From contig CAWJGT010000009.1 in assembly GCA_963842525.1 (NCBI GenBank), positions 1,792,001 to 1,856,000 of the forward strand: DNA of 64,000 bases, in the 5' to 3' direction. Position 1 is the stretch's first letter, and the number at the start of each line of letters is the position of its first letter. The position numbers were made by a program, and so were the translations under genes. Below the pieces are notes generated by a model. It saw only the letters and a program-made list of their open reading frames with translations, was not told the DNA's origin and searched no databases. This document shows, piece by piece, positions 2,368-46,725 of the stretch. The DNA is from an uncultured Holophagales bacterium (GTDB lineage: Bacteria > Acidobacteriota > Thermoanaerobaculia > Multivoradales > UBA5704).

Positions 2368-3005
2368 GCGCGGGCGAGCCGCTCGACTTGGTCGTGCTCG
2401 TTCCGGGCAAGGATGACCGGGAGACCGTCGACGGATTGCTGTCCGTCCGTTCCGAGAGCCTCGGAATCCTGCGCATCCGCTACGAGATCCTGGTGCATCC
2501 GCGGCGAGATGCCGGCTGCTTCCACGAGGCCCCCGCCGTGCTTCAGCCGTTCCACCGGCGAGCCCGTCATGCGCTTGTCCTGTTCGATCGCGAAGGGTGC
2601 GGGCAGGAAAACCGCACGGCACAAGAGATTGCCGGGGATGTCCAGGGCCGGCTCGCCGAGGCAGGCTGGGGAGATCGCGCCGAGGCCGTCGTCATCGATC
2701 CGGAGCTGGAGGTCTGGATCTGGACTGATTCTCCTCGGATCGAGGGCGAGCTCGGGTGGAGCCATCGTGATCGACGGCTCCGGGACTGGCTCCAGGAGAA
2801 CGGATGGTGGGGCGAGGAGGAACGCAAGCCGGCCCGTCCCAAAGAGGCGTTCGAACGGGTGCTGCGGGAACTGCGCCTGCAGCGCTCCTCCTCGATCTAC
2901 GGCAGGCTTGCCAGGACGGTTGGGCTCCGCCGTTGCGAGGACCTCAGCTTCCGGAGATTCTGTGATCTGCTCCGGTCCTGGTTTCCCGCCGAGCCTCCGG
3001 CCTGA
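2364..3005 (+). CDS. ATPase partner protein, MAD4-like (TOPRIM/DUF4276-like)
   Basis: ATGA overlap with the ATPase; motifs DLVVLV..KDD, VHPRRDAGC, LVLFDREGCG, IDPELEVWIW, KPARPKEA, C.D.SFRRF resemble the MAD4 family (recognised, not searched). Confidence 0.65.
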   Translation: MSAGEPLDLVVLVPGKDDRETVDGLLSVRSESLGILRIRYEILVHPRRDAGCFHEAPAVLQPFHRRARHALVLFDREGCGQENRTAQEIAGDVQGRLAEAGWGDRAEAVVIDPELEVWIWTDSPRIEGELGWSHRDRRLRDWLQENGWWGEEERKPARPKEAFERVLRELRLQRSSSIYGRLARTVGLRRCEDLSFRRFCDLLRSWFPAEPPA

Positions 3006-3007
3006 TC

Positions 3008-3820
3008 CTACCGTGCCGTCGGGATCTGCAGCATCTGGCCGGGCTTCAGGCGGCTGGAGCGGACGCCGTTGGCGCTCTTGATCCTGGAGACGCTCGTGCC
3101 GTGGCGCTGGGCGATGCTCCAGAGGCTGTCACCGGACCGGACCTTGTATTTGCGGTTGGAGGCCTTGGCCACCGTGCCCCGGCTCGAACCGCCCGTGCCC
3201 TTGGCCGCGACCTGGACGCCGGAATCCACGCCGCGGCTGGCCAGGTAGCGCATGTAGGGCTGCGGGTAGAGCGTGACGTGGTAGTGCGGGGGATGGTTCT
3301 CGCGCGTGGCCTCCAGGACCCCTTTCCCCTCCAGGGCGAGCAGGTTCTTCTCCAGCCAGGCGCGGCAGGCCGGACGGCTGCTGCGGCGCAGGTCGACCGC
3401 CATGCCGGTGGGGTGGACCGAAAGCGGCGAGGCGTTGCGGGGTTGGCGCGTCGTGGGCCGGGTGAGGCTGGTCACCACCAGCCGCTCCCGGCAGGCGCTC
3501 TTGTACTGCTGCGCCAGGCGCTCGATGAAGGTCTTGACCTCGGACCGCGCATAGGGGAAGGAGACGTCGACCACCCGGAAATTGGAATTTCCCGTCACGC
3601 GGACAAGCAGGCCGCGGCTCGCGAACTCGCGGACCTCGCTGGAGGTGCGCAGGTAGGTGTAGTCGTGCTCCCGGGCCATCCGGTTCTGGCGGACCATCGA
3701 GACCTTCGAGCCGGCGAGGCTCTGGGCCTCGGGGGCCGGCACGGCGGCGAGAAGGAGCAGACCGGAGGCGACGGCGACGCGGGACAGGGGCCGGAGGCGG
3801 GAGGATCTCTCGAGCTTCAT
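3008..3820 (-). CDS. Secreted DUF5715-like peptidoglycan peptidase with C-terminal LysM
   Basis: Signal peptide; SVHPTGMAVDL and HYHV metal-ligand motifs; C-terminal YKVRSGDSLWSIAQRHG LysM. Confidence 0.85.
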   Translation of the reverse strand: MKLERSSRLRPLSRVAVASGLLLLAAVPAPEAQSLAGSKVSMVRQNRMAREHDYTYLRTSSEVREFASRGLLVRVTGNSNFRVVDVSFPYARSEVKTFIERLAQQYKSACRERLVVTSLTRPTTRQPRNASPLSVHPTGMAVDLRRSSRPACRAWLEKNLLALEGKGVLEATRENHPPHYHVTLYPQPYMRYLASRGVDSGVQVAAKGTGGSSRGTVAKASNRKYKVRSGDSLWSIAQRHGTSVSRIKSANGVRSSRLKPGQMLQIPTAR

Positions 3821-28720: not shown

Positions 28721-28922
28721 TGAGGCCGGAGGCCGATGCCCTGGGAGAAAGGCAATACGCCAAGGCGGCCTGAAAGGCCCGCGAGAGATCTGGTCCGAGT
28801 CGGCGCGTTCCGCTCCGGCTCTCGCGGACCTTTCAGGCCGCGTGACCGTGGGGCCTGTTGACCCAGGGCATCGGCCTTCGGTCTCAGCCCTGGGCTGCGC
28901 TCTCGCGACCCCTTGGGTCGCC
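28721..28922. repeat. REP family B composite (GCCGATGCCCTGGG / GGCCTGAAAGGC / CCCAGGGCATCGGCCTTCGG.CTCAGCCCTGGGC)
   Basis: Nested inverted repeats; close relative at 46333-46585 and an interrupted copy at 43691-43725. Confidence 0.85.
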
Positions 28923-41515: not shown

Positions 41516-43411
41516 GCGCCGGACAGACCTATCAGAACCCGGTCTGGCCCGGGTCGTTCCCCGACCCGTTCGTCCTCAAGTTCCGGGGCGAGTACTGGGC
41601 CTACTGCACCGGCTTCTGGACGGACGGCCGCTGCTTCGGGGTCCTCCACTCGCGCGACCTGGTGCGCTGGGAGCCCCGGGCCGGCGCCCTGGAGACCCTT
41701 CCCGGCGGACATCCTTGCTACTGGGCTCCGGAAGTCACCTACGACAACGGCCGCTTCTACCTTTATTACAGTGTCGGCAACGAAGAGCGCATGGAGATCA
41801 GGGTGGCGGTGGCGGACCGGCCGGAAGGGCCGTTCGTCGACAGCGGCCGGCGGCTGACCTCCGAGCCCTTCGCCATCGACGCCCACGTCTTCGCCGCGCC
41901 GGACGGCTCGCGCTGGCTGTTCTATGCCACGGACTTCCTGGAGCACAGCCACATCGGCACCGGCACGGTGCGCGACCGGATGCTCGACCCATACACCCTG
42001 GCCGGCGTTCCGCAGCCGGTCTCCCTGCCGCGCCACGACTGGCACGTCTATCACCCGAACCGGCCGGAGAAGGGGGGAGTGCGCTGGCACACCGTCGAGG
42101 GCCCCTTCGTCCTGGAGCGCAAGGGGCTCCTCTACCAGATGTTCAGCGGCGGCAACTGGCAGAACCCGACCTACGGCGTGAGCTATGCCGTGAGCCCCAG
42201 GGTCGACAGCCCGGGCGAGTGGAAGCAGGCGGCCGACGGCGTGCGGGTCCTGCCGGTCCTGCGCACCCTCCGCGGCGGAGAGGCGGAAGTGATCGGACCC
42301 GGCCACAACTCGGTCGTGCGCGGCCCTGACAACCGGGAGCTCTGGTGCATCTACCACCGCTGGTCCGCCGATTCCAGCGCCCGCGTGCTTTCGATCGATC
42401 CGCTCGACTGGGCCGGCGAACGCCTGCTGGTGCTCGGCCCCTCGACAGCCCCGCAGCCCGCGCCTCGTCCTCCGGTCTTCGTGGACTTCTTTGACGAGCC
42501 AGGAGGCCTCGGGCCGGGATGGGAGACGCTGGGCGGGGCATGGTCCTCGGGAAACCACGCAGCCGTCCAGAGCGAGCCCCAGGGGACCGGTGCAGCCAGC
42601 CGGCGGACCAACACGCCGAGCTTCCTCGTCGAGGTCAGCGCGCGGGCGCTGGACCGCTCCAGGGGCAGCTTCGGCCTTGGCCTGCGGGGACGGGGAGGCC
42701 GGTGGCTCCGCCTTCTGGCCTCCGACCTGCCGTTGCCGCCAGGCTTCGATCCCACCGCCTTCCACCTGCTCCGCCTGGAGGTGGACGGTCTACGCCTCCG
42801 CCTCGAGATCGACGGCGGCGCCGCCCGCTGGCAGGGTCGGCTGGAGCAGCCCGCGGACGAGATCGCCCTCCTCGTCGAAAGGACCGCCGCCGAATTCTCC
42901 GGCTTTTCCCTGTCCGCCGGCTGGGAAGACCTGTTCGAACGACGAGACGTCTCCGGCCGATCTGGGCTGGGACACCGGAGGCGCCGAAGCGTGGGTGGGG
43001 GAGGGCCGGCTCTGGCTCGCCTCCGGCGTGATCACCAAGGGTCCGCCCTTCGAAAGCTACGAGGTGCGGATCAACGCACGTCTGCACGAAGGAGACGGCG
43101 GCTACGTCCTGTTCCCGGCCTGGGGCGAGATGGGGCCGGGACCCGCAATCGAGCTTGTCCTTGCAGACAGGGCCTTGGATGTCGGAGAAGCTGGAGAGGA
43201 GCGCCAATTCCTCCTGCCCTCCGGCTTCGATCCGCGGACCGACCAGCATCTCCGCTTCCGCAAGCACGGCGGTAAGCTGGAGATCTCCTGGGAAGGCACC
43301 ATCCTGGGCACCGTCGCCGCTCCGACCCACCCCACCCGGCTGGCGCTGGGAGCCCGGGGAGGCCGGGTCTCCTTCGAGGCGGTGCGGGTCACGGCCCTGA
43401 TCGACGCTTGA
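41512..43411 (+). CDS. Glycoside hydrolase family 43 with C-terminal beta-sandwich domains; frameshift near 42940
   Basis: GTG overlapping the GH1 stop; YQNPV..FPDPFV, WAPEV, AIDAH, TVEGP, GPGHNS. Confidence 0.87.
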
Positions 43412-43636
43412 AGGCCTGAGAGGGTGTCTGGAAAACTCTGCTGGGGGCGTCGCCTTGGCCCCTCACCCCCAGCCCCTCTCCCATCCGCACTCCCTTCCCC
43501 CGGGAGGGGGGAGAAATGCATGATCAGGAAGCTCCTGGGTGGGGGCTCCCCTCTCCCGGGCGGGTGTGAGTGCGGATGGGAGAGGGGTCGGGGGTGAGGG
43601 CCCGCGGCGGGACTCGCGCAGGACTTCCAGACACCC

Positions 43637-43724
43637 TCTGATCTACTACGTCCGAGAGTCCTCGTACGGCGCGCAAATTTCTTTTCCATCCGGCCCAACG
43701 GGCTGGGAGAGCGGAGCCCAGGGC
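43637..43724 (+). repeat. About 88-bp direct repeat of 46279-46366 (left arm of a REP-B element), interrupted here by the IS110 end
   Basis: tctgatctactacgtccgagagtcctcgtacggcgcgcaaattt... versus tctgatcgactacctccgagaatcctcgtgcggcgcgcagattt... Confidence 0.85.
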
Positions 43725-43877
43725 TTCTATGTGGGCCACCGGTGTCAAGCGTCTCGGGGTGGTGGTTCGTCGTTTTCCCTTTCCTGGCCCCCCTCCTGTC
43801 ACCGGTTTTCTCGCTTCTTGGTTCTCAGTCCGTCTGGCGCTTGCCCGGAGTGTGCAGGGACCTGGGGAGTCGTCCTT

Positions 43878-44045
43878 TCCAGCTTCTATCCGTGCTGACC
43901 TCTTTGGGTCAGGACACCAAATGCAGCATGCGCTGTCGAGCGACTCAGGCAAGCTCTCGGAGCGGCCCCATCTGAGAGAACGGTTCGGAAGCCGAACCAA
44001 GCCCTGGGCCGGGCACGCTCCACCAGTCGTTTCTCTCCGAGCTTT
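43878..44045 (-). ncRNA. Putative bridge RNA / seekRNA (boundaries approximate)
   Basis: Two internal loops, each around a short hairpin; loop strands match the target flank (gcccagggct; ctgaga) and the element end (cttctat). Confidence 0.7.
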
Positions 44046-44056
44046 TTCCTCCCAGA

Positions 44057-44570
44057 TTACTTCGTCTTCAGCTCAGCACCCTCAGGAATCACACCGTAGT
44101 CCAGATAGCGCCACAGCGCGATCAGCAGCTTGCGGGCGAGGGCCACGATCCCCACCCGCCGAGATCGGCGGCTCCCAGGACCATAACGCTCCTGAAACCA
44201 CAAGCTCAGGCGACTCTGCGGTTGGAAGCGCAACCAGCCCCAAGCGATCTCGATCGCCATCGCCCGGACCCGACGATTCCCCGCCTTGCTGATCCCTTGT
44301 TCGTGGTTGACCGTGTCACCGCTCTGATAAGGCATCGGCGTCAGACCCGCCAAACCGGCCACCTCACGGCGGTTGCGGAACTGCCGCCAGCCGAAGAACT
44401 CCACCACGAACAGCCAACCACTGTTGCCTCCGATCCCCTTGAGCTCTTGCAGCCGCTGCACCTTCTCCGTCGCTTCCACGCTGGCCGTCCGGCGAAACCG
44501 CTCGAGCTCGGCAATCTGACTCTCCAGCACAGCCAGACGCTCGCCCTCTCGCCTCAAACGCTCTCTCCGC
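44057..44570 (-). pseudogene. IS110 transposase, C-terminal half only
   Basis: LKGIG...F.NRREVAGLAGLTP.PYQSG...GISKAGNRRVR...IVALARKLLIALWR; N-terminal DEDD RuvC domain absent. Confidence 0.9.
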
Positions 44571-44761
44571 TCCGATTCGAACCTGCCCCGCCCGCGAACC
44601 GCCTCACCAAGGCCGAAATTTGCGCCGAAAGCTCCGAGCTGGCAGCTTCTACGAGTGCGGCTTGGAATATCCGCGCCGGATTCCGCCGCGCTCCGCTTGG
44701 AAGCTCCTGCACACCTGTCGAGAGCGGCCGGACCACTGCCCCTTCGGACGCCGCAACCAGC

Positions 44762-45030
44762 GCGGCCTGCATCACTACGGCGGCGGCCTGCATCACTCGC
44801 ACCCTGGCCTGCGACACTGCTCGGGTGAAGCGAATCATTCCGAAGGTGAAGCACATCACTCCTGTTGTGACCTGATACGCTCCAAAGGTGGCAGGAGTGA
44901 TTCGTGTGATGTTCGGAGTGTCTCGCGGATCGGCGTGTGTGATGCGCGATCCGGCGGGAGTGTTGCGCTTCGAAGGCGAGGTGATGCAGATCACGGCAGG
45001 AGTGATGTCAGTCGTGATGCACGAGAGCGC
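44762..45030. repeat. Degenerate 21-bp-periodic tract with inverted symmetry
   Basis: Units such as gcggcctgcatcactacggcg / gcggcctgcatcactcgcacc / gtgaagcacatcactcctgtt, then ggcaggagtgattcg / ggcaggagtgatgtc. Confidence 0.6.
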
Positions 45031-45478
45031 GGAGTGTTCGGGTGCATTGCGGCGCAGGATCGCTATGCCCAAGGAGCTGAAGCGCCTGGTGCCGAGACCG
45101 CGCCGTGTGTCCTCCAGGCTCAGCCGTATGCAGCGCGCCGATCTTGTCGTAGGCCGAGGCGACTTGGCCGGTCCTCAGAAGCGGCTCGAAAGTCCTCGCC
45201 AGCGAACAGACTCGACCCGCTGGTGATCCAGGTCCGTCGTGTCATCCTGTGAGCGTAGCGAAGGATCTGGGCGGTGGGAACGGCCCCCACCAGCGTCATG
45301 TGGCACGACCTTTATTTCTCCGTGCGTTGATTCATTTTTTCACCGGTTCAATTCTCCACTGCGCCAATTCCTCACCCGCGGCGGTACCGGGCCGGTGCGC
45401 CGCCCGCCCGTTCCACCGCCCCTGAAGGGGCTCGAAAACGAAATCGGAGCCACCTGATCCCCGGGTTGAAACCCGGGT

Positions 45479-46189
45479 CTACGTGCCGGCGCCCACAAGG
45501 GGCGCTCCCCCCGGTCCCCCGGAGCTTTGCGGGCGAGGGCTGGGCGATTGAGGCACCGCAAGCACACGCAGAGCCATATAGCCGAGTAGCAGGCCAATGC
45601 CGAAGATCAGCGTGACTCCGTACGTGCGGGGATGCGAAGCGGGATTCAACAACCGGACCGTGATGTCACCGAAGATTCCCGCCGGATCCGTCAGGACTTC
45701 CCAACTGTTCCAGCGCAGGAACCGTCCGAGATAGATCCCGAATCCGGACAAGAAGAGCGAGCCGGCGGCGACGATCCAGCCTGCCACGCGACCGTGCCGC
45801 TCCTCCACGGCGCCTTGGACTTCGAGGAGAGAGATGTACCCGAGCAGGAGCCCCGTGCCGGCACAGGAGAGCAGGAGAGCGAGGTCATACCACAGCGGGA
45901 CCAGCGGCCGTGGTGCGAGGTGGAGCAGGTCCGTCAGGATGTAAGGTGCGTTCGGGAGGAAGAGAAGCCAGAGGGTGAACCATCCGAGCCGGAGCAGCCT
46001 GGGACCACGGCGCTGACTCGAAGCCCGGAAGGCCTGAGCCGCCAGCCACGGAATCCAGGCGAGAAAGAGATTCCACCACAGGAATACGTAGGAGAGGGAA
46101 CCCGAGCGCTCCACCCGCAGCATGAGGAGAGCGATGCACCAGAGAGTCAGCACACCGGGGATGGTCCATCGCGTGGCATCAGTTCTCAT
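45479..46189 (-). CDS. DUF1361 family membrane protein
   Basis: FLWWNLFLAWIP, WLLFLPNAPYILTDLLHL, GIYLGRFLRWNSW. Confidence 0.9.
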   Translation of the reverse strand: MRTDATRWTIPGVLTLWCIALLMLRVERSGSLSYVFLWWNLFLAWIPWLAAQAFRASSQRRGPRLLRLGWFTLWLLFLPNAPYILTDLLHLAPRPLVPLWYDLALLLSCAGTGLLLGYISLLEVQGAVEERHGRVAGWIVAAGSLFLSGFGIYLGRFLRWNSWEVLTDPAGIFGDITVRLLNPASHPRTYGVTLIFGIGLLLGYMALRVLAVPQSPSPRPQSSGGPGGAPLVGAGT

Positions 46190-46332
46190 GATCAGAATAG
46201 ATGCTTCAGGAACGGCGCGCAGAAGGCCGGATTATGGCAAGCCGGTGGGAGATCGTGGCGAAATCGTGGCTTTACTCATCTGATCGACTACCTCCGAGAA
46301 TCCTCGTGCGGCGCGCAGATTTCGTCTCCATC

Positions 46333-46725
46333 CGGCCCAACGCGCCGGCAGAACGGAGCCCAAGGCATCTGAGGCCGAAGGCCGATGCCCTGGGCAGAGA
46401 GGTGATCAAACCCCGCGGCCTGAAAGGCTCGCGAGAGATTTCTGCCGGAGTCGGCTCAGCGCTCGGTTCAGCCAGAGGTCTCGCGGCCTTTCAGGCCGCC
46501 TGAACGTGGGGCCTGTTGACCCAGGGCATCGGCCTTCGGCCTCAGCCCTGGGCTGGAGTCTCCCGGCCCGTTGGGCCGGCCTGGAAGGCTTGGGTTGCGG
46601 GCAAGCGTGAGCCGCTCTGAGAGGGTCTGGAATCAGCCCCGCAGGGGCGGTCGGAATTAGCCCGGGATTTCAATCCCGGGAACCGAGCACATTTCAACCC
46701 ACCGGAGCCCCGGCAGGGGCGACAG
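46333..46725. repeat. REP family B composite followed by another REP type (agccccgcaggggcg / cccgggatttcaatcccggg)
   Basis: Nested palindromes matching 28721-28922; related palindromes near 45418-45482 and 13127-13146. Confidence 0.8.

Follow-up and report, generated by a model that had tools for sequence, protein, structure and literature searches.

A broken IS1111-type insertion sequence in an uncultured Holophagales bacterium and the two-domain RNA predicted to read its REP target and its own ends

Does the non-coding DNA left behind in a broken insertion sequence still spell out where the intact element goes and how it reads its own ends? The question is raised by positions 43726-44563 (minus strand) of a 64,000-nucleotide stretch of an uncultured Holophagales bacterium (assembly GCA_963842525.1, contig CAWJGT010000009.1, positions 1,792,001 to 1,856,000), hereafter the window, which hold the 3' part of an insertion sequence of the IS110 family, IS1111 type, and thus a broken copy. 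An earlier note on this DNA, made from the letters alone, had placed the remnant in that family and type and had read in it an RNA of the bridge kind, programmed against the repetitive extragenic palindrome (REP) of the host itself. Comparison of the remnant with sister copies in the same genome and with relatives elsewhere makes us consider it very probable that we are dealing with a dead copy of an IS1111-type element whose intact form encodes a two-domain bridge (or seek) RNA, reading both the REP target and the ends of the element.

A broken copy and its intact sisters

Searched against its own genome (9.95 Mb in 34 contigs), the segment 43716-44570 recurs at five more places with 100% identity over positions 1-848 of its 855, further matches lying at two places at 84% and at four at 74%. 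Five full-length, near-identical copies of the element are present, 1550-1554 bp long between two CT dinucleotides and all in one REP; the intact element of ~1553 bp encodes a 378-aa protein, its gene being preceded by 84 nt and followed by 332 nt. The window copy is identical to these copies up to 44563 and divergent beyond, and their left-end sequence has no match in the window at up to two mismatches. PF02371 is the sole domain matched by its open reading frame (ORF), in which no RuvC domain is found; together with the end of sister identity at 44563 this confirms the loss of the RuvC half of the transposase noted earlier. The intact copies to which the same note had looked for the enzyme do exist, since the 378-aa frame is open in four of the five, the fifth (L004; G000 C11:199757-203605) being full-length with a one-base insertion that cuts the frame to 325 aa. 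The parts of the window copy are the following.

43726-44563, minus strand: truncated element with right end, 3' non-coding region and the C-terminal 168 transposase codons, delimited by identity to the sister copies
44057-44563, minus strand: transposase fragment, Tnp domain only (stop codon 44057-44059; PF02371 at E 2.2e-17)
43726-43748, minus strand: tip of the right end, containing the sub-terminal inverted repeat (GGCCCACATAG-A) and the conserved TTGACA (43748-43743), placed by the end pattern in relatives
43637-43725, plus strand: left half of a host REP unit ending in GCCCAGGG and the core CT (43724-43725), the left target flank; a direct repeat of 46279-46370 at 86%

The junction gcccaggg-CT-tctatgtggg lies at 43716-43735 exactly as first reported: on the plus strand, GCCCAGGG-CT (43716-43725) is followed by TCTATGTGGG. 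This left flank is also found beside all five full-length copies, which in the window plus orientation read ...ccggcccaacgggccgg.agaa...GCCCAGGG-CT-[TCTATGTGGG ... CTGCATAGCAT]-CT-GAGGCCGAAGGCCGATGCCCTGGG. Their junctions are ...GCCCAGGG-CT and CT-GAGGCCGAAGG throughout, with GCTCAGGG in place of the latter in one copy, and the insertion point is the CT in GCCCAGGG-CT-GAGGCC. The same core is present at both junctions, CT standing on both sides in 5/5 full copies and only once in unoccupied sites. The end missing from the window had been predicted to read ...ttggtgtcCT followed by gag; gag does follow the CT at all five full-length copies, and the predicted end itself is wrong, the copies ending ...CTGCATAGCAT-CT-gag, that is ...GCATAGCAT-CT.

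Exact unoccupied 16-mer targets (GCCCAGGGCTGAGRCC) number 12 in the genome, against none for a reversed-pattern control, and two of them, both found by the genome pattern search, lie in the window:

46541-46556, minus strand: unoccupied intact target GCCCAGGG-CT-GAGGCC, 2.8 kb off, in inverted repeat I2
28880-28895, minus strand: second unoccupied target GCCCAGGG-CT-GAGACC

These places contain, on the minus strand, the predicted target GCCCAGGGCTGAGA (28882-28895) and the near-target GCCCAGGGCTGAG (46541-46553), both where the earlier reading had put them. The REP core CCGGCCCAACGGGCCGG occurs 46 times in the genome at up to one mismatch, against three for the control, and many of its copies form inverted pairs ~215-230 bp apart; an inverted pair in the window is made up of 46332-46395 and 46520-46579. 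Inside the element the sub-terminal inverted repeats, with 3-nt and 1-nt terminal extensions, are weak here (CTATGCAGGGC against CTATGTGGGCC, 8/11), the length usual in the IS1111 group being 7-17 bp; the repeat of relative L032 is CTATGAAGG, 9/9.

The full-length protein matches PF02371 at E 3.1e-17 and the NCBIfam model NF033542, 'IS110 family RNA-guided transposase', over residues 61-366 (183 bits, cut-off 140), a coverage by which the sister copies are predicted to have the N-terminal RuvC-like DEDD domain; PF01548 reaches 22.3 bits, below its cut-off of 29. Solved structures align over the C-terminal domain only (ISCro4 at E 1.7e-6, IS621 at E 2.6e-5). The motif GL-P----S(T)G in the C-terminal domain, which marks the IS1111 group according to PMC11187229, is present in the translation as GLTPMPYQSG. 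The PF02371 match and the long non-coding region downstream of the gene bear out the assignment to the IS110 family, IS1111 type. The best annotated tblastn matches in the plasmid collection belong to the ISMno20 family (48.1% identity over 88% of the query) and the ISRel9 family (~42% over 96%).

The predicted RNA and what its loops read

Forty relative loci with 44-90% amino-acid identity were fetched, mostly from Acidobacteriota (Thermoanaerobaculia) metagenome assemblies and otherwise from Chloroflexota, Planctomycetota, Desulfobacterota and Proteobacteria. With 11 own-genome copies they make up the 51 loci examined, of which the 44 with the conserved donor motif were kept (L030, L037, L039, L043, L046, L048 and L058, without it, were left out); distinct target-domain sequences are provided by 36 loci. 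An RNA sequence profile found a homologue downstream of the gene in 35/40 fetched loci. When RNAalifold was run on a MAFFT alignment, both the target domain and the outer stem of the donor domain came out, with the variable hairpins mis-paired; the structure of 27 pairs used for the covariance model R1 (13 sequences) was therefore set by hand.

R1 matches 42 places in 45 sources and 12 places in the whole genome (six of subfamily A, two of B and four of C, as defined below) among the best 150 of ~10140 first-look candidates. Its sole match in the window falls within the 3' non-coding region downstream of the transposase gene, where the RNA had been anticipated. Across 41 distinct rows, 97.3% of the cells are paired, compared with a shuffled mean of 82.3% and with 32-50% in slid controls, and 18/27 pairs are changed on both sides, values that 0/500 shuffles reach. 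An Rfam E-value search of 43000-45500 returned no bridge-RNA family and only spurious microRNA matches on the palindrome at 43451-43609. The elements of the predicted RNA are listed here in its own 5' to 3' order.

43834-44026, minus strand: predicted bridge/seek RNA with a target-binding domain and a donor-binding multiloop domain (R1, 171.3 bits, E 2e-39)
44021-44011 with 43969-43959, minus strand: closing stem of the target domain and the part it encloses, GGAGCG-U-GCCC / GGGC-CGCUCC (helix 1)
44000-44009, minus strand: 5' strand of the target guide, GCCCAGGGCU, equal to the plus-strand left flank with the core CT (10/10 identity to the flank)
43982-43998, minus strand: target-loop hairpin (helix 2; 2/4 modelled pairs changed on both sides)
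43970-43977, minus strand: 3' strand of the target guide, UCUCAG (43977-43972), then AU; complementary to CT-GAGG with one G-U pair
43954-43949 with 43844-43839, minus strand: outer donor stem GCUUGC/GCAAGC and the multiloop it encloses (helix 3; 6/6 pairs changed on both sides, 100% of cells paired)
43921-43924, minus strand: 5' strand of the donor guide, GCAU, complementary to left-end bases 1-4 (ATGC in transposase orientation), from covariation
43892-43917, minus strand: hairpin 2 of the donor domain with its GUG...CAC base, holding most of TTGGTGTCCT (helix 5; 98.3% of cells paired)
43882-43889, minus strand: 3' strand of the donor guide, AUAGAAG, equal to the right-end tip ATAGA with the core AG, preceded by GG and followed by C (CG[GA]ATAGAAG in 44/51 loci)

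Helix 1 was correctly located by the earlier note, which had counted 11 plain pairs at 44011-44021 and 43959-43969; it consists of 10 pairs with one bulged U, seven of them changed on both sides and 99.2% of cells paired. The target-loop hairpin (43998-43982) and the loop strands GCCCAGGGCU and UCUCAG are likewise where they had been described. In transposase orientation GCCCAGGGCU, on the 5' side, is complementary to AG-CCCTGGGC, and CUCAG, on the 3' side, is identical to CTC-AG.

That this loop reads the left flank with CT and CT with the right flank of the host REP is borne out by its covariation with the flanks of other insertions, as the earlier note would have it. The ends of relatives were placed by motif (AG-A..CTATG in 34/44 loci, TTGAC-N8-22-ATAGA-AG in 40/44), and guide and flank were compared as a contiguous match anchored at the core, a single mismatch ending the count. 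Matches of at least 8 nt between the 5' guide and the right flank were obtained for 15/32 cognate against 14/992 non-cognate distinct pairs, and matches of at least 5 nt between the 3' guide and the left flank for 13/26 cognate against 61/650 non-cognate pairs; in neither test was the observed sum reached by any of 10000 permutations. The AU that follows the 3' strand extends the reading into the left end, with whose first two bases it agrees in 21/24 combinations, this end being nearly invariant. Within the genome itself three subfamilies reside together (A with 6, B with 2 and C with 4 copies), sharing the same ends and a nearly identical donor domain and differing in target loops, each of which matches its own flanks:

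Subfamily A: 5' loop GCCCAGGGCU; right flank (transposase orientation) AG-CCCTGGGC; 3' loop CUCAG
Subfamily B: 5' loop GGGCGGAGCU; right flank (transposase orientation) AG-CTCCGCCC; 3' loop CUCAG
Subfamily C: 5' loop GCGCCAGGCU; right flank (transposase orientation) AG-CCTGGCGC; 3' loop UAAAG

For 12/12 copies the best site of the copy's own guide is the site that it occupies, with 7-10 nt matched in the cognate combination and 3-5 nt in the others.

The donor domain encloses three hairpins, and the candidate donor strands sit in the multiloop between them. The second hairpin (43897-43910), AUAGAAG (43889-43883) and UUGGUGUCCU (43920-43911) had all been pointed out at these positions, and AUAGAAG does read core and element end, since in transposase orientation it equals the last five bases of the element followed by the core. 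The proposal that UUGGUGUCCU, or TTGGTGTCCT, is the other donor guide fails: GGUG and CAC pair at the foot of hairpin 2, where L024 has the compensatory GUA/UAC, and TTGGTGTCCT is thus not a guide because its GGUG pairs as a hairpin stem. As judged from the alignment, the strand reading the other end would instead be GCAU (43924-43921), just upstream of TTGGTGTCCT. Its counterparts in the relatives (GNAU) follow left-end bases 1-4 as listed below, the complementarity being exact in 26/32 rows, and 4/9 of the non-ATGC left ends have one guide mismatch.

Left end ATGC: guide GCAU in 21 rows; two further rows are near-misses, in one case (L023) owing to a parsing error, GCAU being what the eye reads there
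Left end ATCC: guide GGAU, 3/3
Left end AAAC: guide GUUU, 1/1
Left end ATAC: guide GUAU once, GCAU twice, UUAU once, GAAU once

The base after AUAGAAG behaves as a handshake position would. It is C in the window, the first base of the target flank, and it equals the first flank base in 33/37 distinct combinations, the four exceptions being wobble-compatible, a result that 0/10000 permutations reach. Two further pairings were tried and rejected for this domain. A discontiguous donor pairing of CAC-GG-AUAGAAG with CAC-ATAGAAG conflicts with the pairing of this CAC with GUG within the RNA (GUA/UAC in L024), and core pairing by the two bases after GCAU is contradicted by their variation (UU, UG, AG, GA, UA and others), unrelated to the invariant core. 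Reading of the donor by the RNA is therefore supported by these comparisons and short, as it would comprise 4-5 nt on one side and 7 nt on the other; the sub-terminal inverted repeats may contribute to the recognition of the ends via the protein.

Mechanism and rival explanations

How such an RNA would work can be outlined by analogy with IS621 and ISEc11. The target domain would be an internal loop in which GCCCAGGGCU would pair with the bottom strand and UCUCAG with CT and the right flank; the donor domain would be a three-hairpin multiloop in which GCAU would pair with the transposase-proximal end and AUAGAAG with the core and the transposase-distal end, the base after AUAGAAG reading the first target base in a handshake-like manner. 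The RNA-bound recombinase would then join the circularised element and the REP, exchanging strands at the CT/AG core, and the circle junction would read ...CCCACATAGA-AG-ATGCTATGCAG.... Written with CT on top, that is on the window plus strand, the left and right target guides and the left and right donor guides (LTG, RTG, LDG and RDG) follow each other in the order and sense of IS621: LTG is left target with CT, RTG is complementary to CT with right target, LDG is left donor and RDG is complementary to CT with right donor. Transposase and RNA are encoded on the bottom strand, and the core reads AG in transposase orientation.

Several results weigh against this interpretation. The alignment used for the pair counts was fitted to R1 and so favours the modelled structure, and folding of single sequences does no better than shuffles (z -0.28 and -1.13). 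The anchored match of the 5' guide is at most 3 nt in 12/32 relatives, mostly the most distant ones, whose ends were placed by motif only, with L035 matching at 9/10 by eye in spite of the contiguous-count rule. On the donor side, exact guides accompany the ATAC left end in only 1/5 cases, most relatives have, in place of the UU that separates GCAU from the hairpin, bases without complementarity to the core, and a second handshake position agrees in 7/37, a value reached by 7211/10000 permutations. AUAGAAG and the right-end tip are nearly invariant, uninformative as a pair, and because of this no covariation can be drawn from that strand. The transposase, with its 378 aa, lies outside the 330-350 aa quoted for the IS1111 group, a soft, descriptive feature in the text of PMC11187229. 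Finally, neither a sigma-70-like promoter nor an intrinsic terminator was found in 43650-44650.

It could be argued that the first domain alone guides, as a ~90-nt seekRNA for the target, the second, conserved one being a protein-binding or regulatory structure and the ends being recognised by the transposase through the sub-terminal repeats instead of by pairing with RNA. The purified seekRNAs of four IS1111 members measure 82-96 nt, and PMC11187229 describes only target matches for them; the proposed donor pairing is short; the pairing of the invariant AUAGAAG escapes any covariation check; and at an ISRel9-family locus a weak target-like domain (E 0.068 with filters off) is followed by a simple hairpin at the place of the donor domain. 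Yet GNAU changes together with left-end bases 1-4 (GGAU with ATCC in 3/3, GUUU with AAAC and GUAU with ATAC once each), and the agreement of the base after AUAGAAG with the first target base (33/37) is hard to explain unless the AUAGAAG strand lies on the junction DNA. Donor-complementary bases have moreover been placed in the multiloops of IS1111 RNAs by Durrant et al. (PMC11208160), so that we regard guidance by the first domain alone as unlikely. An even more sceptical explanation would see in the matches between non-coding region and flanks no guides at all, and only pieces of REP captured by the element, for example through imprecise excision, and alike by descent. Although REP-like palindromes with CCCAGGG/CCCTGGG cores abound in the genome and several relatives also target motifs of this type, exact loops occupy the same two positions of the structure in elements with unrelated targets (AG-GGGAGGGC in L027, AG-CCGTAATC in L028 and AG-GGTGGGC in L041), and each of the two loop strands matches a different strand of the DNA, the matches overlapping at the core, like those of experimentally proven seek and bridge RNAs. 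The covariation of guides and flanks therefore disfavours capture of REP pieces, which we hold to be highly improbable.

Starting from the two-domain guide RNA, which we prefer, it is tempting to speculate further that the guide works mainly in cis, loaded on the recombinase made from the same transcript, that targets are naturally switched by exchange of loops and that excision out of register leaves scars. The occurrence of 12/12 copies at the sites of their own loops would speak for use in cis, if it is more than an effect of small numbers; as a whole this extension seems to us possible and rather doubtful.

Two observations on REP units and ends touch on this point. Four REP copies have three extra bases exactly at the insertion point (46359-46376 in the window and, in G000, C25:137415-137432, C25:540246-540263 and C13:63881-63898), three reading CCCA(A/G)GG-CAT-CT-GAGG and one CCCAGGG-CT-TCT-GAGG; turned into transposase orientation, these additions are ATG, the opening triplet of the element, and AAG, which corresponds to its final base plus the core. 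Such triplets may have been left as scars by off-register excision, or else be ordinary variants of the REP. The right junction of relative L020 (~2990-3010 of the locus) reads CCCACATAG|CCCAGGG and lacks three bases in comparison with the canonical CCCACATAGA-AG-CCCAGGG, as though the upstream AG of ATAGAAG had been the core; this insertion lies in the same REP family as the window element, 8 bases away and in the opposite orientation. Were the speculation true, the variants and the short end would be a natural record of excision errors of IS1111-type bridge recombination at neighbouring AG/TG.

The probably silent copy, its surroundings and related systems

According to the published view, such RNAs are processed from the transposase transcript or from a junction-promoter transcript (PMC12288879), and the RNA of the remnant would then be expressed only by read-through. 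The only candidate source is a gene upstream of it on the same strand, encoding a DUF1361 membrane protein (45479-46189, minus strand; PF07099, E 3.5e-44). Close to the right tip, at a distance of 17 nt, TTGACA at 43743-43748 (minus strand) is a perfect -35-like hexamer, conserved in the right ends of most relatives; ISEc11 and IS621 have junction promoters, and by analogy this hexamer may drive transcription across the junction of the circle; no convincing -10 was seen in the left end. The window copy, one of 12 RNA copies, is most likely a silent and redundant fossil, because it has no left end, no RuvC half and no promoter-like site, and because the RNA region does not differ between it and the intact copies.

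Beyond the break, 44564-45460 is matched in part, at 71-73%, by two further places of the genome, and no Pfam domain is found in its ORFs; a ~100-bp segment (~45185-45285) is repeated dozens of times in the genome, and 44762-45008 contains short direct and inverted repeats rich in GCATCAC/GTGATG. Neither another mobile element nor a guide-directed event was found when looked for as the cause of the break at 44563; the flank there does not match the guides. On the other side of the remnant the large imperfect palindrome at 43451-43609, with 61-nt arms that are 79% complementary, is probably another repeat family of this genome. Another remnant, a solo fragment 96-97% identical to the last ~56 bases of the right end, stands beside a REP elsewhere (L013; G000 C12:20664-20729).

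Among described systems the element is closest in build to the IS1111 elements ISEc11, ISPa11, ISKpn4 and ISPst6 (PMC11187229) and ISCARN28, ISAzs32 and ISPa11 (PMC11208160), with which, by comparison of descriptions only, it shares a recombinase combining DEDD and PF02371 domains, the downstream non-coding region, sub-terminal inverted repeats with short extensions, the GL-P----SG motif and donor bases in a multiloop; ISPa11 likewise targets a REP. It differs from them in its 378 aa and in belonging to a distinct lineage of Acidobacteriota, with Thermoanaerobaculia-like relatives. In the IS1111 seekRNAs described by Siddiquee et al. 2024 (PMC11187229) the segment matching the top strand precedes, on the 5' side, the one matching the bottom strand, an order opposite to that of IS110 types, and the present RNA has the same segment order, top-strand match first. 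Durrant et al. 2024 (PMC11208160) place IS1111 bridge RNAs in the right end, often with the donor bases in a multiloop.

With IS621 (structures 8WT6-8WT9; Hiraizumi et al. 2024, PMC11208158; excision complexes in PMC13626964) the element shares two domains, a CT core and a REP target, a 5' strand equal to the DNA top strand and a complementary 3' strand in each domain, a handshake-like base after the 3' donor strand and, with CT on top, the same guide order. Unlike in IS621, the RNA lies downstream of the gene, both are encoded on the other strand with respect to the recombination sites, a three-way multiloop and not an internal loop holds the donor strands, and the 5' donor guide has only 4-5 nt without core pairing. 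ISPpu9 and ISPpu10 of Pseudomonas putida KT2440 (Pares-Guillen et al. 2025, PMC12288879) resemble it as IS110-family elements inserted in REPs, with AG at both junctions in transposase orientation and several copies per genome, including a fragment with only the 3' end of tnp; in contrast, ISPpu9 is a member of the IS110 group whose bridge RNA lies upstream, and Ssr9, found downstream, is a separate, dispensable small RNA (PMC12288879).

The nearest annotated proteins, those of the ISMno20 family (Methylobacterium nodulans pMNOD01) and of the ISRel9 family (rhizobial plasmids), differ too much from the present one to belong to the same insertion sequence, and beside their genes R1 gave no RNA match with default filters. 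With filters off, a weak match to the target domain (8.6 bits, E 0.068) is seen at 2368-2459 of L066, on a Shinella plasmid, downstream of an ISRel9-family gene, and a CUUGCC-5 nt-GCAAGC hairpin follows at the place of the donor multiloop; this may be a short, target-only form of seekRNA. With its nearest annotated proteins only 48% and 42% identical and R1 finding no RNAs there by default, the element is an unnamed lineage. It is a member of a known family and not a new kind of system. The right-end RNA of IS1111-type elements, REP targeting and the CT/AG core are already published (PMC11208160, PMC11187229, PMC12288879), the handshake guide is known from IS621 (PMC11208158; PMC13626964), and an RNA-guided recombinase, two programmable loops and handshake bases are also published; the donor multiloop and handshake positions of IS1111 RNAs may already be covered in published figures or supplements. 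The set of guide, target and donor that the earlier note had proposed as new and natural consequently holds for the target loop and AUAGAAG, which are real, and not for its second donor strand, and its novelty was overstated.

What the locus adds is a fully read natural set of guide, target and donor for a bridge recombinase lineage distant from IS621 and ISCro4, with its ends, its target, four guide segments and one handshake position. In ~40 relatives and three co-resident subfamilies the target loop changes and the donor module stays fixed, a comparative set that can help to select and program further orthologues and to study how elements of the IS1111 type read their ends.

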